Of a stretch of 64,000 nucleotides of DNA, positions 1,029-55,065 are shown one piece after another. The position numbers and the translations under genes are program-made. The notes below the pieces were generated by a model that did no database searches, was not told the DNA's origin, and saw nothing but the letters and a program-made list of their open reading frames with translations. Source of the stretch: Heteronotia binoei (Eukaryota); assembly GCF_032191835.1 (NCBI RefSeq), contig NC_083223.1, positions 252,340,001 through 252,404,000 of the forward strand. Direction: 5' to 3'. Position 1 is the stretch's first letter. Each line of letters begins with the position of its first letter.

Positions 1029-4000
1029 CTTTTAGCCTTTCTCTCTGCCAGCCCCTGGAACTCTGGGGCAGAATTTGAAGCCAGCAAGGAGCTGGGGGTG
1101 GGGAGGGGAGTAATATGAAGGAGGAGGAATGCTCAGCTTTGAAGATGAATGTCAGTTCTCGGCTGCACCCTGCTGGTTTTCTGGCAGAAGACTAGCCACG
1201 ACCTTTTTGGCATCAGCCTAACCCAAATGGGCCAAGTGTCTTGTTAGGCAGCAGAAAGGGAATGCAGTGGCTTTCCAGGTTGCTCACAGATGGTGCCAAG
1301 GGTCAGCATGGTGAGGCAATTGCCTAGGCCCATCTTTCTAGCAAAGGGCCCACTGCAAATTGGAGACAGACAGCCCATATGCTCCTTAGAAGCTACTTAC
1401 AAATATTGCCTGTGCTGTCCCAGGGGCAATATCTCATTTCCTGATGGGAAAAAAGCACGGTTCTTTTGTTCTCCTGACACCGAGGGGGCCTAAAAAGGGG
1501 CAAAACACTTGTGCTCTGTACTCTCCTCCAGGGTGTGTCTGTGCATGCACATGAAGAGCAGTGTGCTTACCGGAAGAGGGCAGCATTTGGAGGCATACTG
1601 GCTGATCCCCCCCACACCCCGCCGCCCCCCCCCCCCAGCAGATGACGCTTAATAGCCCACTATGTCCCAATGCTAATGCAATCCACATAGTCCGTTCCCC
1701 AAGTCCAAAAACGGAAAACCAAGGGCTCTCACTTTCATATCCAGTTCTGTGAGAGACAGAGACATGGGGAGGGGAGGGCGGGATTAGTGTCTCAAATCAG
1801 GAGAGCCTAGGAGTCATTTTGGGACCATTGTCCTTTATTCCTTTCCTTCCTCCTATCCTCACAACAACCCTAAGAGGCAGGTCAGGCCGACAGACAAAAA
1901 TGGGCCCTATGTAAGAAATCACTGGGAGGAGAATTGCTCTTCTTCTAAATTTTTAACAAACGTGCGGCACTGTGAGTGTCAATGTGTTGAGAATCCCAAT
2001 GAAGACAGATGGAGACCATCTCCATTTAGCCATGAAGCTTTCTTGGAGAACCAGTCATTCCTTCTCAATCTAACATACTTAACAGGGTTGTTGTTAGGGT
2101 AATAAGAGGAGAGGGCTTCTCAGGGGAAAGTGGGATAAAAATGTACTAGATGGAAAATTATTTCAAAGGTAACCATGTTGGTCTGCAATAGAACAGTTAG
2201 AGACCAACAAAAGTTACTGGACTCAAATCCAGATGGAATATGAGGAAGATCAGGAAGGACAAGTGGGAGTTAGGACCCAGGAGACAGGTGGGGAGAGGAA
2301 GAGGAATTACCTGAGCAGGTTATGTGCTGAAAGGGTTGCCAGAGAAGCAATTTCAGTTCGCATTGCCTAAAGCAGAAGAACATTGCCTTCTGTAATCACA
2401 CATGCAACTTTTTAAATTAAAAAATGAAATTAATTACATTTTGAGGGCAGCCTGCCTGCTCCTCTTCTGAGAGACGGATAGGATCTTTCAATGTCACTTG
2501 TTGGTTGATGTTAGCTTTGGCTCTGTGATAGAACATCTGCTTGGCATGCAGAAGGTCCCAAGTTCAGTCCCAAGCATCTCCAGTTAAAAAGAATTAAGTA
2601 CTCTCTCTCTCTCTCTAGGTGCTGTGAAATACCTCTGCATAAGACCCTGGACAGCTGCTGCTAATTGGAACAGACAGTGTATTTACCACAATCAGCCCTG
2701 GACTGACCATGAAGCAAAATAAGCACATGCTTTTTGCACCAAGGGAAGGGGGGCACCACAGAGGTTCCCCCCCCCCCAGCTATCATGCCCTTAACTCTTT
2801 CAATGCCACACTCAACTTTAGTGTTAAATATATATTTAACAAGTTGACATTTAATATAGTTGTGGGGTTTGGCCTGGAAGAAAACTGAAGTTTTAATCTC
2901 TTATTTCACCTTCATGTCTTGTCAGTTATGTTTTAGGGCGTGTGAGCAAGAGCCCCCTATTTTTACTCATATACAGACATCGTGATTACTAGTTTGGGTG
3001 CCAAGGTGCCTGTAAATTCAACTCACACACATCTGCTTGAAGACATAAGTTTTATCTACTGTTCTGAGAGACTTATGTGGATACCAGGGGGCTCATCTTT
3101 ACAGCAGCATCCTCTACTTCTTAATGGGGGCTAACCAGGAATGGTGACAAGCTCCCAGCCGCTCCATGCGGGCACAGTCTTGGCCGTTGCAGTGGAAGAA
3201 GTCGCACCACCATAAGCTGTCCAGTCAAGCGGTTTCCAGCCCGTTCCATGAAGGCTACATACCAATGGTGACAGCACTAAACTCTTCCTGCCCAGCCAGA
3301 CTCCATGATAGAGAAATGAAAGGCTCGCATATCCAACAGCAGCTGCTTCAACATCTGCATAAGGCAATTAAGCTTAACTTGGGCAGATTGCCCAAGCCTT
3401 TGTCTAATGGAACTCTAGACAAAGAATGGTGCCAGCCAGAGGAGGAAGAAGAGGAAAACCGCCTGAATCCAAGAGCCAGAGCTATTGTGTAAACCAGGTG
3501 TCACCTTAGATATTGATTTGGCCCTCTATTGTCATTTTAGATACTTGTGTTAATCCCCTTCACCCAGACCTGACCACCCACACTGTCATTTTGGAGCCTC
3601 CTCTTCTCTGAGGTAATATACCATGTGATACAGCATCATGTGCCATCTGACCCTGTGTCATAAGCCCCTGGACCGCCTACCCCCTAAGGGCTCAAGGTAG
3701 TCTTTACAACCTCTGACCCAACGCCCCAGATGTGTGCATCTGACAGTACTCCTACCCTGCTGTGTAGATATACCCCTCCCCCCCCATACCTGATCAGTTG
3801 AGGGTCCTCCCCAATATTCCTTTATGTCGCCATTGGAGCCTTCCTTGAAGACTCTCTCTCTCGGCTTGGCTTCGCGAACGAAGATTTAAGAAGGGTGCAA
3901 TAGTCCACGTTTGCTGCAGGCTCGCTGGTGGCTGACAAGACCAATGCGGGACAGGCAGGTCCGGCCACAGTAGCTGCAGGGAAAAGTCTGATTTGGGGTT

Positions 4001-6742
4001 GGTGCTGTAGCAGTGCGATTCTTCCTCAATCTCCTTTTGTCCTCAAGACCAGCTATGCGTGCGTTCTCAAAGGAAGAGACAGCCTGGTGGATGGTGTGCC
4101 TCCATGCTTTGCGATCTGAGGCTAGGTCAGACCACTGGTGATGGTTGATGTGACAGGTGCTAAGGGATTTCTTCAAGGAGTCCTTGTACCTCTTCTTTGG
4201 TGCCCCTCTATTTCGATGGCCGGTGGAGAGTTCGCCATACAGGGCAATCTTGGGAAGGCGGTGGTTTTCCATCCTAGAAATATGCCCTGCCCAGCGCAGC
4301 TGCGTCTTCAACAGCAGTGCCTCGATGCTGGTAACCTCTGCCCGCTTGAGGACTTCAGTGTTGGTCACAAAGTCACTCCAGTGGATGTTGAGGATGGTGC
4401 GAAGGCAGCGCTGATGAAAGCGCTCAAGGAGTCGCAGGTGATGACGGTATAAAACCCACGATTCGGAGCCATAGATGAGGGTTGTCATCACAACAGCTTT
4501 GTAAACATTGATCTTTGTGCCTTTTTTCAGATGCTTGTTGCTCCACACTCTTTTGTGCAGTCGGCCAAATGCACGGTTTGCCTTTGCCAGCCTGTTGTCA
4601 ATCTCCTTGTCGATCTTGGCATCTGAGGAGATGATGCACCCCAGGTAGCTGAACTGCTGGACTGTCTTCAGAACTGATTCACCCACAGTGATGCAAGGAG
4701 GGTGATAATCTTCCTGGGGTGCAGGCTGGTGGAGAACTTCTGTCTTCTTCAGACTAACTTCTAGGCCGAATAGCTTGGCAGCCTCTGCAAAGCAGGACGT
4801 CATATGCTGCAGAGCTGATGCCGAGTGGGAGATGAGTGCAGCATCATCAGCAAACAGTAGCTCTCGGATGAGTTTTTCCATTGTCTTGGAGTGTGCCTTT
4901 AGTCGCCTCAGGTTGAACAGGCTGCCATCGGTGCGATAGCGGATGTAGACACCATAGTCCTCATCTAGATCTACTGCGGCTCTTTGAAGCATCATGCTAA
5001 AGAAGATCGTAAAGAGAGTTGGCGCAAGAACGCAGCCTTGCTTTACACCTGTGCCTATTGGGAAGGACTCCGAGAGGTCGTTGCAGTGTCTGACTTGGCC
5101 TCGCTGGTCTTCGTGTAGCTGGATGATCATGCTGAGGAACCTTGGGGGACATCCTAAACGTTCCAAGATTTGCCACAGGCCTTTCCTGCTAACGGTATCG
5201 AAAGCTTTGGTAAGGTCGACAAAAGTCACATACAGACCCTTGTTCTGTTCCCTGCATTTCTCTTGCAGCTGCCTGAGAACAAATACCTTGAAGACTACGA
5301 TAGGCAAATATTACCCTGTTTGTCCACCTCGTGTTTACCCCTGTCCATTTCAACACTATTTTCTTAGGCCTGTATGTTTGTTGTATGATTTTATACCCTT
5401 GTATATGCCTATGTTTTTACAATAAAAACCCCTTGATTGTTAGACCATACCTCCTTGTTATTGGGTGATTTCCCAATGAGAAATCCTCTGTATACACAGA
5501 TTCATAAGATCTCGCTAAAGCCTAACTGCCAACCTGTTAATTCCCAAGACTAAATTTTAGGGCAATTTAGGAACAGGCGTTAGTTGGCCTTAATCCAGCC
5601 CTGACCAGAGAGCCAGTTTGGTGTAGAGCAGGGTTTCCCAGACTTTTCTTTCCTGTGGCCCGGTTAATTTTACACTTCTCCTTCGTGGCCCACTAAAATT
5701 TGGGGGTGGAGCCAAGAGACTTTGGTGGTGCAGTCAGAAGACAGGAATTATGTCATTTCCTCTGGTTTCAAGGGCCAAGTGATGTCACTTCTGGGGCATA
5801 CTGAACCACTGAATCCACCTTTTCCTGTGATGTCACTTCCAGGGTACTCCCCCAAACCTGTCTCTTCTGAAGTAACTTCGTTTTCAGAAAAATCTCTCTG
5901 AAACTCATGCTGAGCCAAAATGGGGGTGGAAAGTGGGTGGTCCTCTCTTTCCACTCCCACACCTGCATGCACCTGTTTGTGTGTTCTTCTCCAGCTTGCA
6001 AGCACTCCTAATGCCCATGTTCAATTGCCTGCACCACCTACACACCCCTTCCTCAACAGCACTGGTCAGTGTATGCAGTTGGGAGTGCTGTTGCCATTCC
6101 CATCAGGAATGACAGCACTGTGTATCACCCACACTGGGCCCTGGCAGCTGCTCTACCTCAAAATATGCTGAAACATTTAGTAGGCCCTTCCTTCAGCTGC
6201 TACTTCTGGAACCCTGCCTCAAGCTACAACCAAGTTTGCTTGGTTTTAGGAAAATCTTTTGACAGCTATTTTTCATACTTTTCTTTGGCTGAAACACTGG
6301 GAAATTGCTGTGAAAGACAGCCGAGAATTGTACTGCAATTAATGAATTAATTTCCAGTTATATGAAGTTCATACAAGCTTTTCTGTAGTTATCCCAAAAA
6401 GGATATTTATGAGGGGCCTGCAGCTTTTTACTGGCTGTGTTTCCCATGCCTTTAAAAGCAACCTGTTTTGCAGATATTTAGCCAGTGAACTTCTTTCATT
6501 CTTTTTAATATCTATAGGAGTTTAATTTTGGTGTCAGACAGCTGTTAAAAGCAGGACCAGTAAAATGGTGCCAAGTTCATAGTACCATCACTTCCAGTGC
6601 TGTTGAGATATACTGCAGTAATCTCCAATAATCTCTTTCTGCCCCACACCTGTCACTCTCACTCACTCACACAGAAATCTCATAGAAAGGCCAGCTGGCT
6701 ACAACTGGGGGTGCCAACTTTTCATTGGCAGAGCTCCTATGT
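1029..6742 (-). CDS. Putative multi-exon gene of small exons, product unidentified
   Basis: Candidate exons 6742-6671, 6307-6279, 3354-3263, 2702-2687, 2466-2438, 2326-2311, 1746-1733, 1062-1029. Each has a YAG acceptor and GT donor, and they join into 100 stop-free codons. Exons were picked by eye; no homolog recognised. Confidence 0.4.
3488..5600 (+). mobile_element. Possible solo LTR split by the RTE insertion (~3488-3853 plus ~5297-5600)
   Basis: TG start, pyrimidine-rich body, AATAAA near 5421; no TSD found. Confidence 0.3.
3854..5285 (-). mobile_element. RTE-clade LINE, 5'-truncated, open RT ORF with C-terminal C2HC-type zinc finger
   Basis: ORF 3886-5307 (FVDLTKAFDTV, GVKQGCVLAP, LLFADD, CSYCGRTCLSRIGLVSHQRAC); (GA)n tail; 11-bp TSD CCTTGAAGACT at 3843-3853 and 5286-5296. 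Confidence 0.95.
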
Positions 6743-26350: not shown

Positions 26351-26403
26351 TTTTGCAGTAGAAATTGTAGGTTTATAATATGGGAAGTTTATAATATGGG
26401 AAG

Positions 26404-27527
26404 CTGCAGTAGATCTAGATGATGACGATGGTGTCTACATCCGCTATCGCACCGATGGCAGCCTGTTAAACCTGAGGCGACTAAAGGCTCACTCCAAGAC
26501 AATGGAAAAACTCATCCGAGAGCTACTGTTTGCTGAGGATGCTGCACTCGTCTCCCACTCGGTATCAGCTCTGCAGCATATGACGTCCTGCTTTGCAGAG
26601 GCTGCCAAGCTATTCGGCCTAGAAGTTAGTCTGAAGAAGACAGAAGTTCTCCACCAGCCTGCACCCCAGGAAGATTATCACCCTCCCTGCATCACTGTGG
26701 GTGAATCAGTTCTGAAGACAGTCCAGCAGTTCAGCTACCTGGGGTGCATCATCTCCTCAGATGCTAAGATCGACAAGGAGATTGACAACAGGCTGGCAAA
26801 GGCAAACCGTGCCTTTGGCCGACTGCACAAAAGAGTGTGGAGCAACAAGCATCTGAAAAAAGGCACAAAGATCAATGTTTACAAAGCGGTTGTGATGACA
26901 ACCCTCATCTACGGCTCTGAATCGTGGGTTTTATACCGTCATCACCTGCGACTCCTTGAGCGCTTTCATCAGCGCTGCCTTCGCACCATCCTCAACATCC
27001 ACTGGAGTGACTTTGTGACCAACACTGAAGTTCTCAAGCGGGCGGAGGTTACCAGCATCGAGGCACTGCTGTTGAAGACGCAGCTGCGCTGGGCAGGGCA
27101 TATTTCTAGGATGGAAAACCACCGCCTTCCCAAGATTGCCCTGTATGGCGAACTCTCCACCGGCCATCGAAATAGAGGGGCACCAAAGAAGAGGTACAAG
27201 GACTCCTTGAAGAAATCCCTTGGCACCTGTCGCATCAACCATCACCAGTGGTCTGACCTAGCCTCAGATCGCAAAGCATGGAGGCACACCATCCACCAGG
27301 CTGTTTCTTCTTTTGAGAACGCACGCATAGCTGGCCTTGAGGACAAAAGGAGATTGAGGAAGAATCGCACTGCTACAGCACCAACCCTAAATCAGACTTT
27401 TCCCTGCAGCCACTGTGGCCAGACCTGCCTGTCCCGCATTGGTCTTGTCAGCCACCAGCGAGCCTGCAGCAGACGTGGACTATTGCACCCTTCTTAAATC
27501 TTCGTTCGCGAAGCCAAGCCGAGAGAG
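26404..27527 (+). mobile_element. RTE-clade LINE, 5'-truncated, same family as 3854-5285
   Basis: ORF 26502-27497; catalytic FADD reads FAED; (GA)n tail; TSD AATATGGGAAG at 26393-26403 and 27528-27538. Confidence 0.95.
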
Positions 27528-28298
27528 AATATGGGAAGGCACACAGATTTCTGTCTAGCTATTTTTATCTTGTCCCTTCTAATGTGTACATGGCTCTTCC
27601 GCCTTCTCTTATGTCCCCACAACAGCCCACGTTAGGTGGCTTAGATGAACTAGCCCAAGTTCATCCAGTGAACTTCATGTCTAAATAAGGTTCTGAATCC
27701 AGGTACCCAGGTCTTAGCTACACCACCGGAGTGGTTCTTAGTGGCTAGACAGAGAAATCATCCTGCTTCTGGGAGTGGCTTATCCTCTCTGGATATTTTC
27801 AAGAAAAGCCTTGGGTAGGCAATGGGCCGTGGCTTAAAAGAGAGCACCTGAGTTGCAGACAAAAGGCTTTAATCCCAGTCCCCAGCATCTCCTCTTCAAA
27901 GATTCCAAGTAGCTGGTGCAGAGAAGACCTGAGACCCTGGAGAGTGTCTGAATCAGAGGGCACAATATTAGGATTGATAGACCAATGGTTTGATTAATTC
28001 TAAAGTATCTATATAGGTAAGGGTGCTTCTGGAACGGTATTGATCTCCCAGAATAAAGGTCAAAGCAAGTAAGTCAAGATGTTTGTATGGAACTGGTATT
28101 TGAAAGGCAGGGGTCATGTTCCTGGGCTACATGTGACTGTGTTTCAAGCATCTGCTCTTTCTAGTCTCCCGCTGGCAAGACCATAGGCATGGGATAACTG
28201 AGCTAAAAAGACTCTGCAAAGGCCCATGACTGTGTGTTTGCAGTCTTATCCAGTTGCAGGAAAGGCTGAAACTAAAACCCTTGTATCATTATCTAGAT

Positions 28299-44335: not shown

Positions 44336-47196
44336 TACTGCAGTGCAGACCTACACAGCTACCATCTGAAACAAATTGGAAGGAAGGAATATTCCCTGAG
44401 AGCAGCAATCTACATGTCAAAGATATAATTTCAGAGCTGTAGAAGGGAAGGTCTTGATTTATTTGCCTCTTGGGTTCTCTACAGTGCCTCTCTGAATTCT
44501 GTGGCAAAGAGACAATGCAAAGTCCTTAGAATCAAAGTTGGAAGGGACCCCAGGGTCATCTAGTCCAACCCCCTGCACAATGCAGGAAATTTACAATGGC
44601 TCCCCCTAAATTCACAGGATCTGCATTGCTATCAGATGGCCATCTAGCTTCTGTTTAAAAACCTCCAAGGAAGGAGAGCCCACCACCTTCTGAGGAAGGC
44701 TGTTCCACTGAGGAACCGCTCTGACTGTCAGGAAGTTCTTCCTAATGTTGAACCGGAAACACTTTTGATGTAATTTCAACTCATTGGTTTTGGTCCTACC
44801 TTCTGGGGCTTGCCTTCTCCTTCTGTTCAATATTCCTTCTACTCACTATTTCTTCTCCTTCATTATTTCTAAAATTTGATGGCAACTTTGATGTGGATTG
44901 GAGAAATCTAGACACTTAAAGACTTAACTTTTTACTGAACTGTGAAAGAAGGCTGAACATCTTAACAGTGCCCTCTCGTGGTGATTTTGAGGGCTATGCG
45001 GTGGATGGATCACTATACAGAGCTCTCTTCACAGTCACCAGAGACCCGTCTCTCTTTCTCATGCCAGGCAAGAGAGAGAGCTCCAGTCCTCTGCCCTGCA
45101 TTACAAAGGTTTGGGAGGCCAGCTACACATCAGCTTCTGCACAGGAAGGATGGTGGTCCTCTCCTCTCATCCAGTACCAAAAGCATCCCATGATGGGATG
45201 AAAGCCTTTCAATCCAGCAACAGGATGGCTGAAACAGCACCCTGGATTGTAAGCACGTGCAACAACTTGCTGGAACATAGTCTGCGTACAAAGTAAGTCA
45301 TTAGGAAAGCTGCTCTTTTTTAATGTGACACTGGACATTCACAATGTTTGTTGCTGTGAAAATGCAGCTACCTGTTATGCAAGCAACAGGTTGAAACTCG
45401 TTCAAACCCTAACAGCCCAACAGACAGGAAATATAAAAAGGGCTGTTTTGCATAGCAGTTGCAATTCTAGCCACTCTCAGCACTGAGAGTTCAAACTGGA
45501 ATCCTGCAAGGACTCTGTCTCACCCAAGGACCATCTTCCCTCTCCATGATCTTCAAGGAATCCTGGACCACAACCTCTCTTCTTGTCAGACAAACAAAGT
45601 ATATTTTACATTCTCATCTTTTATTTCCCATTTAGGCAGAACCTGCTCCCACCCCACTATTTTTATATAGGACTAGATTGTGCACTGGCTTCCTCTGGGT
45701 GTATATGATTTTCTGCTAGACCAACTGCTTGGTTTGGATTGACTTTATTCTGTCCCTTTTATTCTAAATAAAATAGTAGTATTTAAATGGTCTTTGCCTC
45801 CTGCCGTTTTTGAGAACACAGTGCCAAGGTTGACCCATGTTACATAGGCTTAAAATCCTCACCCCACAAAAAAACCACAGACTGCTTTAAGTGCACTTAA
45901 GAAAGGAGAAGACTGCAGATTTATACTCTGCCTTCTCTCTGAATCAGAGACTCAGAGTGGCTTACAATCTCCTATATCTTCTCCCCCCACAACAGGCACC
46001 TTGTGAGGTGGGTGGGGCTGAGAGGGCTCTTGCAGCAGCTGCCCTTTCAAGGACAACCTTTGCCAGAGCTATGGCTGACCCAAGGCCATTCCAGCAGCTT
46101 TAAGTGGATGAGGGGAAACAAATCTGATTCTCCCAGATAAGAGTCTGCACACTTAACCACTACACCAAACTGGCATGTACCTGGATACAAGGAGCAGTTT
46201 GTTAAACTGTATATAAAAGGTAACTAGTAAAGAAGAAAAAAATGAAGTATGAAAAATCTGTCAAAATAAAAAAGCAATGTATTTTTTTAAAAGATGCAGA
46301 TAAGAACGTGCATTGTAAGAGAAGCCATGTTGGATCAGGCCAATGGCCTATTCAGTTCAAAACTCTGTGTAACAGTGGCCAGAAATCAGGTGCCATCAGA
46401 AGGTCCACCAGCAAGGCCAGAACTCCAAAAGCCGTCCCACTGTTGCCCTCCAAGCACCAAGAATACAGAGCATCACTGCCCCAGACATAATAGTGTTCCA
46501 TTTATACCTTGTGGCTAATAGCTACTGATGGACCTCTGCTCCATATATTTATCCAGTCCCCTCCTGCAGTTGTCTAAGCTTGTGGCTACTATCACTTCAA
46601 GAGGGGATTGGATAAACAAATGGAGCAGATAGAGTCAAGTGGGTACTCAAGAGTGACTGAGGCAACAGAACAAAGTTTGAGTCCAGTAGACCTTTAAGAC
46701 CAACAAAGATTAATCCTGACACTTCATCGTCCTGTACCAGATGAAGTGTGCTTAGAGAGCACACAAAAGCTTACGTTCTGAATTAAACTAAGTTGGTCTT
46801 AAAGGTGCAACTTGACTATTTTGTTCTGCTTTTTCATATTATAACACAAGGAGTTCTGTTCTGGTGTGCCTGTCCCAGTTAGACACAACAGGCAAGGTTC
46901 TTATTAGTAACAGGAGAAAAATTTATTCAAATAAAAAGAAAAGCCAGCAGAAACGGCACAGCAATTCGCAGACTAAGGAAAAATGCTGCCCTTATATAAT
47001 ACACAACATCTGTCAATCATTTCTGAGCAGCCTCAAGGAACCATATTTCATTTCATTAAATATATAACATTGTTTACCAGTCACTTGAACCACACAGTAG
47101 GAGCAAAAGTATTAGCAAAAGACCAGGTGGTGCTGTTGGCCCAGATGTCATTATAGAGCTACATCTTTGTTCAAGTTATATTAAATGCTGCACACC

Positions 47197-47395
47197 CAGG
47201 GCTTTTTTTGAGCAGGAACGCACAGGAATGCCATTCCGGCTGGCTTGGCATCAGGGGGTGTGGCCTAATATGCAAAGGAGTTTCTGCTGGGCTTATTCTA
47301 CAAAAAAGCCCTATACAAAACAATGGTGATGTCAGGGGGTGTGGCCTAATATGAAAATGAGTTCCTGCTGGGCCTTTTCTACAAAAAAAGCCCTG
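47197..47395. mobile_element. hAT MITE inside the ERV 3' LTR region
   Basis: Exact 8-bp TSD TGCACACC (47189-47196, 47396-47403). Confidence 0.9.
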
Positions 47396-47763
47396 TGCAC
47401 ACCCAACAATCAGTTACACTTAGGAGGTGTACCATGAGAAGAACTGATTATCTACATAGATTATCTTTCCATCCATTATGAAAACCAATTTCTGAAGACT
47501 CATTGGTAGCCCTTATCCAGCCACAGCATGAAAAGGTAATCCCTTGTGCAAGCACCAGTCTGTGGTGACGCCGCATCACGACATTTTCATGACAAACTGA
47601 CATAATGAACACAGATTTCAAAAAATGGCTTTAAACTGCCCTCCCCTTTTATTCCATTGGGGGTTTATAAACAAATAGGGTTTCCTTGGGCACAACAAGA
47701 TGCTGTTAATCTTCTATTTTCTTCTACAACTCCTAACAAATCTCAAGCTTAAATTTCAATTAA

Positions 47764-48062
47764 AAAGGTAAAGTAAAGGCAGTCCCCTGTGAAAGCACCA
47801 GTCATTTCCAACTCTGAGGTGACGTTGCTTTCACAACAATTTCACAGCAGACTTTTTACAGGGTGGTTTGCCATGGCCTTCCCCAGTCATCTACACTTCC
47901 CCCCAGCAAGCTGGGTACTCATTTTATCGACCTCGGAAGGATGGAAGGCTGAGTCAACCTGAGCTGACTACCTGAAACCAGCTTCCGCCGGGATCAAACT
48001 CAGGTTGTGAGCAGAGAGTTCAGACTGCAGTACTGCAGCTTTACCACTCTGCGCCACAGGAC
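47764..48062 (-). mobile_element. Sauria-type SINE inside the ERV 3' region
   Basis: Matches the other copies. Confidence 0.9.
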
Positions 48063-48489
48063 TCATTAAATTTCAATTACTTTATGGCTAAGTGGGCCCC
48101 TCTCAACTATTTCTAATCAAACGTGTGGACACATGATTTTCTACCAAACCCCCTTAGGCTACCCCCTCTCCTATAGGTCAATATCCCATTTAGGGTCTGG
48201 TATTTTCCCCAGCATTGCCACATCATGTAATAAATATATCCTCTGACCATCCCAGTACCAATCTGTGCCAATGGATATGGGTTTATCCTTACATCTTGTT
48301 TCTATTCTTCTGCTTCTCCAACTGAACCCAATAATGTGCACACACAAACTGGTTTTTCCAAGCTTTCCAGAATCCTCACACCCAGCCCCCAAATAATTTA
48401 ATATACTGGTCCCATTTCAGTTGGGCTGGATCCTTCTGAATAGAGAGTGTAAGTCACTGAGGGAATCTGTGCTCCAGGACTTGTCTGCC

Positions 48490-48925
48490 TCAGCCCTGTT
48501 GGCTTGAGATGGATCTTCCACTCAACAGGCTTCTTTGCCCTGATAGGATGAATCCACACAGGCTGACCCTCAACCTTAACTGCACTGTGAGACACTAGCA
48601 AGACCTAGACTAGTCATTTTCACTCTAGCTGGAGAGGTTTCGTGCCTTCACATAAACCCAATCACTGGCTGAAAAGAATGGACTGGAGCATCAAAGTGGT
48701 AAGGGCTGCTGGACAATGGCAAACCTGTGAAGGGAAGACGGACAAAACTGCAAAGCAATCACGTTTCTTTGACACAGCATCTCCAACATTTAAAGTCACC
48801 CTCCCCTTGGGTTTTAATATAGGAAAAGGGGACATCCAAAAGCCGTTTCAAAAGGAGATAACCCTAACTTCCCTTTGGAGCTGTCCAAATTCAAGTTGGT
48901 GCCAAAGTCAAAGTCTGTGGTGAAG
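48490..48925 (-). pseudogene. Retroviral integrase C-terminal remnant
   Basis: With frameshifts: PQTLTLAPT*IWTAPKG/KLGLSPFETAFGCP, DAPVHSFQP/DWVYVK, AVKVEGQPVWIHPIRAK. Confidence 0.85.
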
Positions 48926-48934
48926 TCATGCGTG

Positions 48935-49550
48935 TTTCATTGTGCTTGAAGATTTCTTCTTGGCTGAAATAATAAGGCTCTGTATAACTTGAGAGTAGCA
49001 AAGTCATTCAGAGACTGCCAAAGAGGCGCCATATCAGAGTAGCAGCAGAACTTTGATTCTTCCTGAAAACTCTCTGATGTGGTGTTTCAAAATAAACAAG
49101 GATGAGCCGAGGCTTTGCATTTGGGCAGTCTCTGTGCTGTCTCATTCAAGGTGCAAATTGTATTTTAACAGAATGCTGCCTTTCCAAAATCCCATTTTCT
49201 TTGTTAAAACTCTGTATACAGTATTTTCAAAATTCTCTTCAGGCACATCTAAAAACCTGAGACGTGTTTTGCTTCCTGCATACCCTATTTGTTTAATGTA
49301 GTCATAAATGCCATGAGTTTCTCTTCTTGACTGTACAAACCCTGTTTGCAATTGTTCAATTTCACTCCACACTACTGGAGATTTCATCAATGGATTGTTT
49401 CAAGGCACTGACATGCCGCCTTAGTTCAAAGAGTTCCATTTCAATTTGACTGATTCCCTGAAGTTCCTTAAAGATCATTTCCATAACATCATGGGTTTGG
49501 CTGATACAACCTGCTGAACCTGTTGAACTTCAAAGGTGTTTAACTTCTGA
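48935..49550 (-). pseudogene. LINE-1 ORF1p-like (Transposase_22-type) coiled-coil/RRM/CTD remnant
   Basis: Heptad-like [35 protein letters not shown], then [19 protein letters not shown]...[17 protein letters not shown]; recognised by motif pattern only. Confidence 0.6.
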
Positions 49551-52186
49551 TGGCATACAGTCCGATCTAAAAAACTTGCTCCCAAGGCCCCAAGTTTTAT
49601 TTTTTACATGCTGAGCTTGGATTCTGAAGAGAAACATTCCTGGCTCTTCTTCCATGTCTGTATTTCCACACAGCACCAAGCTTTAAGCTATGCAAAATGT
49701 GTTCACCCTCAGAGCTTTCATCAGAGGGCATGGCTACTCAAGTTATTTCTGCTGCGCCTCACCGGCATTGTGTGCCACATGTATATGCTGCTCTGGCCTT
49801 TGATTTCACTTAAGGATTAGTCCACTTACAATTGCTACCTGATGGTTGAAAGTTGGGGAGAAGGAAGATACTTTCTATTTTGGTACTATTTTCCAATTTA
49901 TATGTAAACATTCCGTAACCTTTTCTCACACTAAATTACTATCAAAGTTTTTGTGTTATCTGACAGCAAATCAGTAGGCTATGGAAATTCGCAAGCTGGG
50001 AAAATGTGATTCATAGGAAGCAATAACATACTGTAAACTGCACTGAAGTTATGTTCTACAGCATCACCTTGATTTACTTCATTCATCTGGTTGACCCATT
50101 CAGTTGGAAGGGAGGTTAACGATAATATTCTCCAAAGATATTCTTTGTTTTCTAGGCACATCGCATTTTGATTAACAACAATAAATACAGACTCACTAAA
50201 AGCCAGAGGAAATGTAGGGCCGGATTATACAGAACTCACACAAGACTCATAGTTCAGGAAAAACATTTCATCTCAAACACAGCATTCCAACAGATCTTTA
50301 CAGAAAGAAAGCTGAATTAAAAACAGTGCTGGAGTTCCATTCAAGAGATCCATGTCAGCAACCTGATAAGCTTGTGCTCCCAATACTTTCGGAGGCAGTT
50401 CTTTAATTGTAATTTCTATCAAGGATAATGACTTTAACACTGACAGCTCATTTGACATGAGTTTTTTTTAAGGCTTGCAACAACACATTAGTACTTCTGA
50501 ACTTTGCTGCTACCTTATTCAATTGCAGCTCCCACAAAACCAACCATTCCTTTCCATATAGCTTTCAGAACAATATCAGAAACATCTTTTCCAACTGCAA
50601 TGAAGCCATCCTGGATTGTATTTATAAATGTATTGGCATGTTTACAAAAGTAAGATGGACTAGTAATCACAGAATACTAAACAGCTTCTAAAGGAAGTAC
50701 AACTTTGTATTCCTTGATAAAACTCAAAATACCGGTTCCCCTGGAACTTCCACTAGTGCAGGTACATAACATCCTACAGGCTTTCAATGTACCATGGCAG
50801 ACCCTTCCACAGTTGCCTGTGGAACAGAAATCAGGATATTTCCTTTTTGGAATCCCTGTTACTTCAAGAATGGTCCTGAATTCAAGCACAGGAGGAGAAG
50901 AGGTGGAATAATTCCTGCCATTAATTTCTTATGAATTGAAATGCTGTTTCCTGGGGCCAGAAGGATATAACTATGGGATTGGATAATTAGTGGCAGCTCC
51001 ACATATTCCATTTACTGAGTCTAAATTATCTACTCCCGTTTTACATGAGCCCTTCCCTTTTTCAGATCCTGAGGGATGCCTGTTATAAACATTTTTCTGA
51101 ACATTTTAACCAGCCTTTACAGATTTAACTCTGTGGACCACAATCATTAAGCATTCCTGAGCCAGTTAAAGCACACTTCCAAAAGCTCACAAAATCATGT
51201 TCCTTATAGTTCTTCTCATGCCACACAAAATTCAACAAATTTCTAACAGTCACAAAGTCATCACAAAATCATAAGTTCCAGCTACTCCAAAGTGCAGCAC
51301 AGCAGCAGTTTTCCCACAGAATATCCTTCAACCATACAATCCGGAGGAGGACAACGGTTTAATCGTTTATTGTGTGCTGCTTTACAGTTAGGAGGATAAT
51401 TATGGCAAACTACACTGCCAAAATTAGGGAAATGCAGCACAGGCTGGAGTGGCAAGACTCCGGAATCCAAAGTCTTGCAGCTTGGATCAATGCTTTGGAA
51501 CAAGCGCTAAACTCCCGTTACCCAGCCTTGTCAGGAAACCTGTGGAACCATGGGGGAGAAGGAAGGCCAGGAGGCCCTTCTTCAAGCCATACTTACCCCC
51601 ACCCTTGGCAGTCAAGGCTGAACACCCCTTACACTACTCAGGGGCCACACAGGGGAGCCATCCCCACATTCCCATCTCTGGCACCATCACATGGTAAGGG
51701 GCCACTCAGGTGTGCGAGGTGCTGCCCTGACTCAAAATTTTCTGACCCCCTCCCCAAAATCCTGAGTCAGGGAAGACACTGTTTTCTGACAGGGAGCCCT
51801 CAGTATCGGCAAAGGCAAGAAAAGTCTGAGGCCACATTTTGGAACAATCATCTACCCCTGCCAATTTGGAACCACTGGTGGCTCACCCAGTTTTACATTT
51901 ATTAAAAGGGAATTTCAATCCCTCTCAAATTATCCCTTAAAGGGCCAATCCCCTGAAAATGGGCCAATCCCTTAAAAAGGGTATCCAAAAATGTTCTCAC
52001 CTATCTTCCATCACCTCAGTGCCTCAAGACATCAACGTGGTTCCCCCCCCCCCCAAAAAAATCTCCTGTTACTAAAACCTCTTCAAGGGACACACAACTT
52101 TTCATGCGGCCTGAGATCAGGAGTGTGGCCTCAAAGGTTCCAGGTGCCATCCAGTCATCCTTAGCTCAGGCCACTGACCAGAAGGT

Positions 52187-52203
52187 GTCCCATCTGGTCG
52201 CCA
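52187..52203 (-). other. Primer-binding site complementary to tRNA-Arg
   Basis: TGGCGACCAGATGGGAC, 4 nt after the LTR end (...TTACA); one base shorter than TGGCGACCCAGATGGGAC, the tRNA-Arg(CCG) complement as recalled. Confidence 0.8.
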
Positions 52204-52490
52204 AAATTGTAATACAAAGGGTTCTGTTCTGGTGTGCCCGTCCCCATTAGACACAACAGGCGACATTGCCCTTATATAACGTTGCATCTGTCAATCATTT
52301 CTGAGCAGCCTCAATACATAGTTTCCTTATGTGGCAAGCATTTGAGCGGGAAACCAGTCACTATGAAAAACATGTAAATGAGAAGCCTTTCCCGCCCAAT
52401 CTTTCAATGTGGAGAAGAGATCGTGTGTGTGTAGTTTCCTCTGAAGCAAAGTCCAGGCACGTTTCAGACCAACCAAAAAAAATTCCAAGG

Positions 52491-52753
52491 TGTAATGTAC
52501 TGAGTGACTAGACGTGTTGAAGGCAACATGCTTTATTAGCGAGTTCATCACAAAGCGAGGCAACGTGGGCCTGGTCGATTATATACATACCCCAACAACC
52601 CTCAGTCTGGCCAGGTCCAATCCTGGCCAGTTAAACTTCCCGCCACAGATCTTGATTGGCGGAGCGTATTTGCCGAGGTACATCCGGGACCAGTGGTGAC
52701 CCCCCTAGCGTCTGCCGTGTTGTACTTTCGGGACTGAAATGCAAGACACAACA
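52491..52753 (-). mobile_element. Gypsy solo LTR related to the LTR at 59966-60238
   Basis: TGTAATGTAC...ACAACA; 5-bp TSD CAAGG; shares tccaatcctggcc and aaacttcccgccacagatcttgattgg with the other LTR. Confidence 0.9.
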
Positions 52754-53049: not shown

Positions 53050-53800
53050 ATGCGTGATTTATCTCAGCCAAGGTAGGCACTCCAATTCCAACGCGACACC
53101 CGAGGCGCTGCCCCTCCACGCCGAACGGGGCGTCGTCACAAAGAAGCCGAAAGGGCTGCTTCTTTCCGGGCGACCGCGTTTGTTGCCGCCCCTTGCCCTG
53201 CCTTCCGCAGCATGGGCGGCTTCGAGGAGGTCCCCGCGGGCACTTGCCAGGAGATGTGCCCAGCCGGCGAGCTGGTGCGGCGGCGGCGCCAGAAACGGCT
53301 GCACATCTTGGAGCTGGGGCCGCCCGAGCAGGCGGTGAAGGAGTACTCACGGCCTGCCGCCGGCAAGGAGTGCCCGCGGCCAGAAGAGTTGCGTCCGCCG
53401 CCAGTGCTGCTGGCCACGGTGCGGCACCTGCTGGGCGAAGCGGCCCGCCGGCGTCCCGACGTGTCCGCAGCGGAGCAGTGCGCCTTCATCACCGACCGCC
53501 TGCGCGCCGTGCGCCTCGACCTCACGGTGCAGCGTGTGTCCGGCCTGGCCTGCGCTGCAGTCCTCGAGCGCTCCCTCGTCTACCTGCTCCGCGCAGGACA
53601 CCAGCTCTGCGGGGAGCCAGCGGCCCGCTTCGACGCCCACTTGCACCGAGCCCAGGTCCAGGAGTGCTTCGCCGCCCTGCGCCGAGCCTACCGGCACGAG
53701 GAGGACGACCGCGCCGCCGCCCAGCCCCTCTTCCAAGCGCTCTTCTTGCTGTACAACTTGGGTAAGCGGAGGGAGGCTGGGCCGGGTGGGTAGGATGGTG
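53050..53800 (+). promoter_or_regulatory. SAC3D1 CpG island
   Basis: High CpG density covering the promoter and exon 1. Confidence 0.75.
53212..53761 (+). CDS. SAC3D1: SAC3D1 exon 1 (SAC3/GANP domain)
   Basis: GTCQEMCPAGE, AVKEYSRPAAGK, LRPPPVLLATVRHL, FITDRLRAVRLDL; donor G|GTAAGC. Confidence 0.95.
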
Positions 53801-54601
53801 GGCAAGATTTGTGATGGGAGAGGTGCCTGGGTCCGTCCAGCGTCCCACTGTCGCAGTCTCCCGGTGGCCTCAGAGAGCGCCATTCATTCCCTTCCCGGCC
53901 CCTATGCAGTGCAGGAATAATCAGACTGGTCTGTCTTGCAGGATTGTTGTACGGATTGCATGAGAATGTGTGAGAAGGGCTTTGAAGTGGCTTCAATCGA
54001 ACGGGAAGCAACCTCCCCATTGCCTTTGTTTTGGCAGTAAACTCTCATCACTTAACAGTGTGTGGGAACGTGGGAGGGATGAAACCTCTCAACACCCCTC
54101 TCCCTCTCCACAGGGTACATCATTTCACCGGGCATGCTTCCCCATGGATCTATATGTGGGCGCTCTTTCCTGGCTGCACATCATAGGTGTCTGCAAAGAC
54201 TGTGGCCTTCTCAGTATTTTTATAGCTGTTTGGTTTATCTTGCTAGGCAGCTTACAATGCAAATGTAAATCAAACTGCTATAAAAATACTGAAAAAAACC
54301 AGTCTCTCCACTAAGCTGCCTTGTGACTCAATAAAAGAAGCTGCGGCGCTCAGTTTACCTGAGCAAGGCTGTTAACGATAGGATGTTTGGGATGTCATTA
54401 ATGTATAGCAAAGTAGAAAGGCAGCTAATAAATGTGTTAAATAAATAAGCAAATAATAAAATAACTAAATAAAACATTCAGCTTTAGGATCCAGTCAAGT
54501 GTTCCAGGAAATCTCCTGGGATGTCCCCGTGCAAATGCTGACTGTAAGGACTGGAAATAGCACCAATGTGACTTTGTGTTATTTTCCTCTCCTATCCACA
54601 G

Positions 54602-55065
54602 GTGCCCCAGATGCTCTCTGGCAGATTTTACAGCTCCCCAATCACATCCGAGCTTCCCCTGAACTTTCCACAGCACGAGCGATCAACTTGGCTTACTTGG
54701 AGCACAACTTTGCCCGCTTCTTCCGCCTGGCTCGGAAGCTGCCCTACCTGCAGAGCTGTGCCCTCCATCCACACTTGGCCAGGGCCCGTCGCCTAGCCCT
54801 GCTCACCTTCAGCCATGGCTTCAGTAGCAGGAACTGCCGCTACCCTTTGGATCGGCTGGCCCACCTGCTAGCTGTAGACAGCCTTGAGGAGGCTGAGGCA
54901 TTGTGCCAGGCACAGGGTTTGACGATGCTGGAGGGAAGTGTCATCTTCCAGAAAGGATCTTTCAAGGACTCTGGTCCCCTAAATCACAGCCCTTCGTGCC
55001 TGCTTGTAGATAGGAAGTGGGGACAGACCACTCTTCAGGAGTTCACAGAGGGTGTCTGTAGCTGA
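54602..55065 (+). CDS. SAC3D1: SAC3D1 exon 2 to stop
   Basis: NFARFFRLARKLPYLQSCALH...RRLALLTFSHGFSSRNCRYPL; total 1014 nt = 337 aa. Confidence 0.95.

Follow-up and report, generated by a model that had tools for sequence, protein, structure and literature searches.

A stretch of the genome of the gecko Heteronotia binoei carries a signal of decayed coding sequence on its minus strand, and the question that it raises is what was once encoded there. The signal lies at 51300-49560 of the window, by which we mean the whole 64,000-nucleotide stretch of DNA analysed. A preliminary description had placed it inside an ERV, and it does sit between two LTRs; it had been read as one unidentified frame of about 550 codons, running on into an 'ORF1p-like module' to give about 750, and its proposed identity was a captured host gene, a viral gene, or a new accessory protein or ORF1 N-terminal domain. 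All of the peptides quoted at that stage are found in the minus-strand translation, and the count of seven stops on the frame path through 50889-49920 is confirmed. Stops are also fewer than at random, as had been proposed: single-frame shuffles of the same 323 codons gave 22.8 +/- 4.4 stops, with seven or fewer in 0 of 2000, although shuffles of this kind allow no frame switches and overstate the contrast.

The decayed coding sequence is real but it can be identified, since 51300-49560 is a mosaic of a gag remnant, an inverted block, RIF1 cDNA and UNC13C. To judge from its sequence, the coding signal is that of a dead, intron-free RIF1 fragment and a UNC13C fragment inside an old endogenous retrovirus. 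The locus is an LTR-mediated chimeric retrocopy, the product of a process that is already known, here in a gecko; it is not a new protein. When 49560-51300 was searched against the gecko's own genome, 19 matches were obtained, distributed over five places. The reading that we regard as highly probable is of a decayed, non-coding chimeric retrocopy in a gamma-like ERV, whose host RNAs were likely captured by reverse transcriptase switching. The captured host gene was therefore the right option, in the form of RIF1, matched exon by exon, together with UNC13C; the same exon-by-exon match to the host refutes the viral gene, the new accessory protein and the ORF1 N-terminal domain. The features are given below in the 5' to 3' order of the element, with C16 and C19 the contigs of the parent RIF1 and UNC13C genes, C10 that of a second copy of the chimera and C8 that of a host-free relative.

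52208..52406, minus strand: 5' LTR, with an internal deletion relative to solo LTRs of the family; two blocks match the 3' LTR at 93/104 sites
52187..52203, minus strand: primer-binding site for tRNA-Arg(CCG), lacking one base of the 18-nt complement
51351..52186, minus strand: leader with later repeat insertions
50964..51350, minus strand: gag remnant (matrix-like N-terminus, LYP-motif region), frameshifted
50728..50963, plus strand: inverted block, on the opposite strand to the rest when set against C16 and C10
50835-50963, in the inverted block: first ~130 nt of a RIF1 exon
50824-50834, in the inverted block: last 11 nt of the preceding RIF1 exon
50736-50823, in the inverted block: ~90 nt of non-RIF1 sequence, likely gag, with no match to the upstream RIF1 exon
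49979..50727, minus strand: spliced RIF1 cDNA, sense, its 3' limit exactly at an exon 3' end
48988..49978, minus strand: UNC13C leader and N-terminal coding exon, 73-89% identical to C19:45716503-45718281
about 49520-49070, minus strand: the former 'ORF1p-like module', 84% identical in DNA to the UNC13C exon
48480..48987, minus strand: pol remnant (C-terminal part of integrase), at the DNA level 62-79% identical to the C8 relative
47060..48479, minus strand: env-region remnant, common to the C10 copy
48070-47770: high-copy SINE-like repeat interrupting the env-region remnant
47400-47197: short palindromic repeat interrupting the env-region remnant
46840..47056, minus strand: 3' LTR with its 5' part deleted; last bases TA, one change from CA

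Fragments of two host genes

Including its inverted part, the RIF1-derived span covers 50963-49979 and corresponds to residues ~407-710 of the protein, with eight introns precisely absent. Pieces that are consecutive in the element are scattered over 9 kb of contig C16, where eight parent exons (C16:16528702-16537758, all AG/GT-bounded) splice to a stop-free frame of 300 codons. The seven introns between these exons amount to 8155 nt and all are missing from the element. The element also retains the last 11 nt of the preceding exon, which in the gene lies across a further intron of 6.3 kb. All seven exon junctions are continuous in the window copy; the C10 copy likewise crosses 7/7 and stops 5 nt past the last. 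The longest open piece of the window's RIF1 part found RIF1 only (5/10 candidates, E 7e-26 to 2e-23). The C16 gene also has, further downstream, an exon identical to P0126, a protein of 2379 aa with the source name Heteronotia binoei RIF1, and the spliced eight-exon piece equals residues 411-710 of this protein. The fragment is internal to RIF1, with the Pfam Rif1_N domain (48-387 in P0003) lying before it, and at its ends neither poly(A) nor a target-site duplication was seen. A PDB sequence search with the RIF1 piece gave no match, and a Pfam scan of the window's own RIF1 and UNC13C pieces gave no meaningful one. Pfam matches to Peptidase_M99_m and ORF29 in pieces of the window were dismissed as weak and below the cut-off, the ORF29 stretch being a high-copy repeat.

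The second host piece derives from an exon of 1013 codons on C19, for which the best 120 of 468 matches are to UNC13C or to unnamed UNC13-domain proteins. In the element it has suffered six deletions of 30-376 nt and has lost its start codon; splicing was rejected as the source of these deletions, there being no GT-AG ends or consistent repeats. It was found at the parent gene and in the window only, in a genome search that gives a lower bound. Over 293 columns it is 78.5-79.5% identical to two geckos, as against 68-73% to 12 other vertebrates. The host exon has a sub-threshold Transposase_22 match (E 0.0011), and the L1-ORF1-like exon of UNC13C has already been noted, and left unstudied, by others (PMC12129022). 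Compared with that exon, the ORF1p-like module is a copy, here a deleted and frameshifted passenger; unlike L1 ORF1p and L1TD1-like proteins, it is neither a LINE ORF1 nor a free-standing domesticated ORF1 gene. The host exon itself (C19; L026 3093-6134, minus strand) combines an L1-ORF1-like coiled coil with an RRM-like stretch and is kept from geckos to amphibians.

The two host pieces meet at a single point. RIF1 stops exactly at an exon donor, and UNC13C starts 160 nt before its ATG, just past an AG; another AG is present 73 nt further upstream. The trinucleotide CAG is common to both sides. The position of the joint is ambiguous by 4 nt, and a switch placed at random would come that close to an exon end in about 3.5% of cases. 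Between splicing of a chimeric RNA and a switch at the shared CAG the odds are close to even, with a slight lean to splicing, because the joint unites a RIF1 donor with a UNC13C AG and would seldom do so by chance.

That the stretch encoded a new accessory protein of a virus, or an ORF1-like one, of 550-750 codons is scarcely credible, because every part of what had been said to resemble no known retroviral protein is assigned: the upstream part to gag, the middle to RIF1, and the downstream part with the ORF1p-like module to UNC13C. The few stops along the chosen frame path and the ORF1p-like similarity downstream would suit such a protein, but that path is partly antisense, the peptide VLEFRT...YPDF (50889-50830) having been taken as coding at a point where RIF1 reads on the plus strand. 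A single frame is not found either upstream, where 51300-50890 has 7/13/8 stops in the three minus frames over 137 codons, or downstream, where 49979-49560 has 8/12/8 over 140 codons. Nor does the frame run on into the module: that of RIF1 would reach its end within 15 codons of entering the untranslated leader of UNC13C, and the start codon further on is deleted.

The carrier retrovirus

The element has LTRs with TG...CA ends plus a tRNA primer site, and the matching tRNA 3' end occurs at a single genome site, on C13, which ARAGORN calls as tRNA-Arg(ccg). It is flanked by ACAT on the 5' side and ATAT on the 3' side, likely a 4-bp target-site duplication; a solo LTR at C1:250.1 Mb fits a duplication of 5 bp and not 4, and target-site length is not uniform in the family. 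A query of LTR plus leader gave 16 genome matches, mostly at LTR-only loci; within the leader, 51902-51637 has matches at unrelated loci on C11 and C1.

The coding remnants are read by way of relatives. The window aligns to the host-free C8 relative in the gag, integrase and env regions. In tblastx its gag remnant matched this relative at E 7e-12 (linked HSPs) and a 630-aa gag on C21 at E 0.003; the latter contains Pfam Gag_p30 (E 4.5e-19). The C8 gag frame finds 10 loci, and the two that were tested both match Gag_p30 (E 4.5e-19 and 5.6e-13), while a PDB sequence search with the C8 gag piece gave no match. The C8 relative has a matrix-like frame and an integrase C-terminus, the latter matching MLVIN_C at E 6.5e-6 with 26.2 bits, below the cut-off of 29.2. 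A CWVC motif read by eye in the env regions of the window and of C10 is, we assume, the env CxxC motif. Env-like motifs were also read by eye in the C8 relative, and the motifs of all three may be of gamma type (CxxC, immunosuppressive domain, CX6C). No Pfam match was obtained in the three env frames tested overall, nor in the two frames tested from the window's own integrase and env pieces. In none of the copies, those of the window, C10, C8 and C1:174.70 Mb, was a reverse transcriptase found. The element resembles class I (gamma-like) ERVs in its TG...CA LTRs, its tRNA-Arg primer site and perhaps its env remnants and, via its relatives, in a Gag_p30 gag and an MLV-type integrase C-terminus; with no reverse transcriptase left, the class I (gamma-like) assignment is a putative one that rests on the gag and integrase of these relatives.

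Two of these relatives have features of their own. The gag at C21:40.33 Mb (L079 55-1947, minus strand) is open for 630 codons, with Gag_p30 and a zinc-knuckle-like motif; no long pol frame is present in the 8 kb downstream and an internal part of its capsid looks deleted. The C8 ERV remnant is adjoined by a Copia-like integrase/reverse-transcriptase frame (C8; L068 5137-7200, plus strand), its family read from motifs.

Probable capture, copying and rival routes

In the window gag breaks off before the capsid and pol picks up at the integrase C-terminus, and the host pieces apparently occupy the place of capsid, protease, reverse transcriptase and most of integrase, a replacement that is not strictly separable from later deletion. 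No host-free family member spans either of the ERV/host junctions: the C8 relative is interrupted or too distant there, and a third element, at C1:174.70 Mb, stops short, ending in gag before the RIF1 joint.

RIF1 sequence was found by genome searches at three places at least, these being the parent gene, the window and C10. The C10 copy lies between LTRs of its own, with an ATAT/ATAT flank, and has the same gag/RIF1 junction as the window, and no similarity was found between the flanks of the two copies over 2 kb on each side. An unlinked insertion with that gag/RIF1 junction shows that the chimera was retrotransposed after capture. C10 goes from RIF1 to the end of pol, so that the last RIF1 exon, UNC13C and the integrase piece are missing in one gap, which is as compatible with stepwise capture, RIF1 before UNC13C, as with capture of both together. 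The ~290 nt by which its gag side is longer belong to a high-copy repeat that came in later and duplicated its target site. A 37-nt copy of env-region sequence (89% identical) lies at C10:42690449-42690413, ~65 nt outside the C10 5' LTR.

The C10 copy also explains the inverted block. It retains the original orientation where the window is inverted, and in it the ~90-nt non-RIF1 stretch runs directly on from gag; the score of that stretch against the upstream RIF1 exon was equalled by 134 of 500 shuffles. Twin priming by L1 typically leaves a 5' inversion. In the window, however, the inversion covers the gag/RIF1 joint and it is missing from C10, and it is therefore later than the capture and not a product of twin priming.

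This bears on the possibility that LINEs made a RIF1 processed pseudogene, and a separate UNC13C one, in a resident ERV that later lost its middle and was then copied through its LTRs. LINE-type elements exist in the genome, big deletions are common in both copies and the inversion has the look of twin priming, but we hold this history to be improbable: the RIF1 piece is internal, with no poly(A) or target-site duplication at its ends, the inversion postdates capture, and two genes are joined at a single point. Segmental duplication or an assembly chimera deserves next to no credence, for although ATAT-like flanks occur at both copies, introns are absent, the flanks are unlike, and the copies are ~80% identical to each other and 76-91% identical to the gene pieces.

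Under the favoured reading of capture by reverse transcription, the enzyme would have switched onto co-packaged host RNAs, passing from gag onto a spliced RIF1 mRNA ~11 nt before an exon end, then onto a UNC13C RNA and back to pol, with the RIF1/UNC13C joint probably completed by splicing of the chimeric RNA. The defective RNA would have been packaged in trans and, tens of millions of years ago, would have inserted two or more times in the germ line of a gecko, after which the copies rotted, with the inversion in the window and with deletions.

LTR-mediated chimeric retrocopies have been surveyed in fly, mosquito, zebrafish and chicken as well as in mouse and human (Tan et al. 2016, PMC5131818), and multi-parent cases include the mouse four-gene 'Super' retrocopy, maize Bs1 and human HERV-K/FAM8A1 (PMC5131818). 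The gecko locus is like the retrocopies of that survey in that a partial, intron-free host mRNA without poly(A) lies between discontinuous parts of an LTR element, more than one parent gene is involved and further rounds of retroposition have followed. It is unlike them in being far older and more decayed, and in a host/host joint at an exon end plus AG, which suggests a splice. Retrocopies of this kind also have microsimilarity where the template was switched and are transcribed from the LTR; at the gecko locus such a similarity is seen in the CAG that RIF1 and UNC13C have in common. An L1-type processed pseudogene would have the mRNA 3' end with poly(A) and a target-site duplication of its own; the gecko RIF1 piece has neither and is joined to UNC13C. 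Transducing retroviruses carry gag-host fusions, and the gecko element resembles them in having host sequence in the gag register, in place of pol; unlike them, it has no open frame, sign of selection or oncogene. In a literature search covering sources outside the subscription journals, neither this locus nor any squamate example turned up. The locus extends two-gene LTR-mediated retroposition to a gecko and its insertion is a datable marker. It also carries a caution: 'ORF1p-like' matches can be UNC13C, and the antisense of coding DNA can mimic open frames.

Decay, selection and age

Both copies are decayed. For the RIF1 part the counts are 6 stops with 8 frameshifting indels in the window and 0 stops with 4 frameshifting indels in C10; the UNC13C part of the window has 2 stops and 11 frameshifting indels. 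Window-specific RIF1 changes (48 of 711 sites) are synonymous in 16/48 cases against 13.8 expected (p 0.52), and the 38 that are specific to C10 in 11/38 against 11.7 expected (p 1). Host-side RIF1 changes, at 25/48 synonymous against 15.1 expected (p 0.003), show constraint. Both copies decay neutrally, on a test of low power with 48 and 38 changes. The raw pN/pS values of 0.61 and 0.75 for copy-specific changes reflect transition bias, and pairwise dN/dS of 0.35-0.42 between copies and host arises because the host gene is constrained. Unlike a functional retrogene, therefore, the locus has no open frame, and no purifying selection was seen on the copies.

The gag-side frame is in register with the RIF1 frame in both copies. 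A fusion of the two could once have served the virus as a decoy against RIF1-dependent proviral silencing in the germ line, and it would be of interest as a case of a retrovirus borrowing part of its own silencer if the Gag-RIF1 frame had been selected. According to PMC9343540, which cites Li et al. 2017, RIF1 silences ERVs, MERVL among them, in mouse ES cells via its N-terminal HEAT region. The gecko chimera was, moreover, copied at least twice. We nevertheless think a useful fusion very improbable. Register would arise by chance 1 in 3 times, and the gag frame from which it is read depends on a weak LYP-motif alignment; only two copies were found, the captured piece starts past the Pfam Rif1_N domain, and nothing was found on RIF1 and ERVs in reptiles. 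Neither terminal branch departs from neutrality, and the stem branch has only three shared derived residues, too few for a selection test.

The origin of the captured sequence was examined in a RIF1 protein tree of 20 rows, chosen from the 120 matches listed, plus the two copies with X at their breaks. The copies are sisters (83% ultrafast bootstrap) and fall inside the geckos (96%), within which branching is unsupported (27-61%). Capture from a non-gecko was rejected: scorable gecko-fixed RIF1 residues are present at 4/4 and 6/6 positions, and UNC13C is closest to geckos. Of the 21 positions at which the two copies both depart from the host residue, the host state is derived in 17, the copy state in 3, and 1 is ambiguous. 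The fossil thus keeps early-gecko RIF1 sequence that is older than 17 residue changes of the host lineage. Identity of the dead copies to the RIF1 of their own host is 79-80%, lower than the 82-84% to that of five or six other geckos, and residues 411-710 of the host protein (P0126) changed faster than in other geckos.

The distance between the LTRs is 0.117, or ~0.06 per LTR, over 104 sites only. This matches the window-specific change in RIF1 and indicates that decay came after insertion. If substitutions are assumed to accumulate at 1-2.5 x 10^-9 per site per year, the insertion would be roughly 25-60 million years old.

The neighbourhood of the element includes a SAC3/GANP-family gene of two exons at 53077-55065 on the plus strand (Pfam E 1e-45 and 4e-30), presumably SAC3D1. 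It is arranged head-to-head with the ERV, whose 5' LTR lies ~800 nt upstream of the first ATG, and its GC-rich promoter could drive read-through into the ERV. Just upstream of the 5' LTR is an unrelated solo-LTR-like element (52494-52753, minus strand) with TG...CA ends and TATA- and AATAAA-like motifs, flanked by a 5-bp direct repeat. Elsewhere in the window, 3855-4981 and 26402-27528 are inverted copies of a young LINE fragment, 1127 nt long and 98% identical, with a reverse-transcriptase-like frame of 387 codons.
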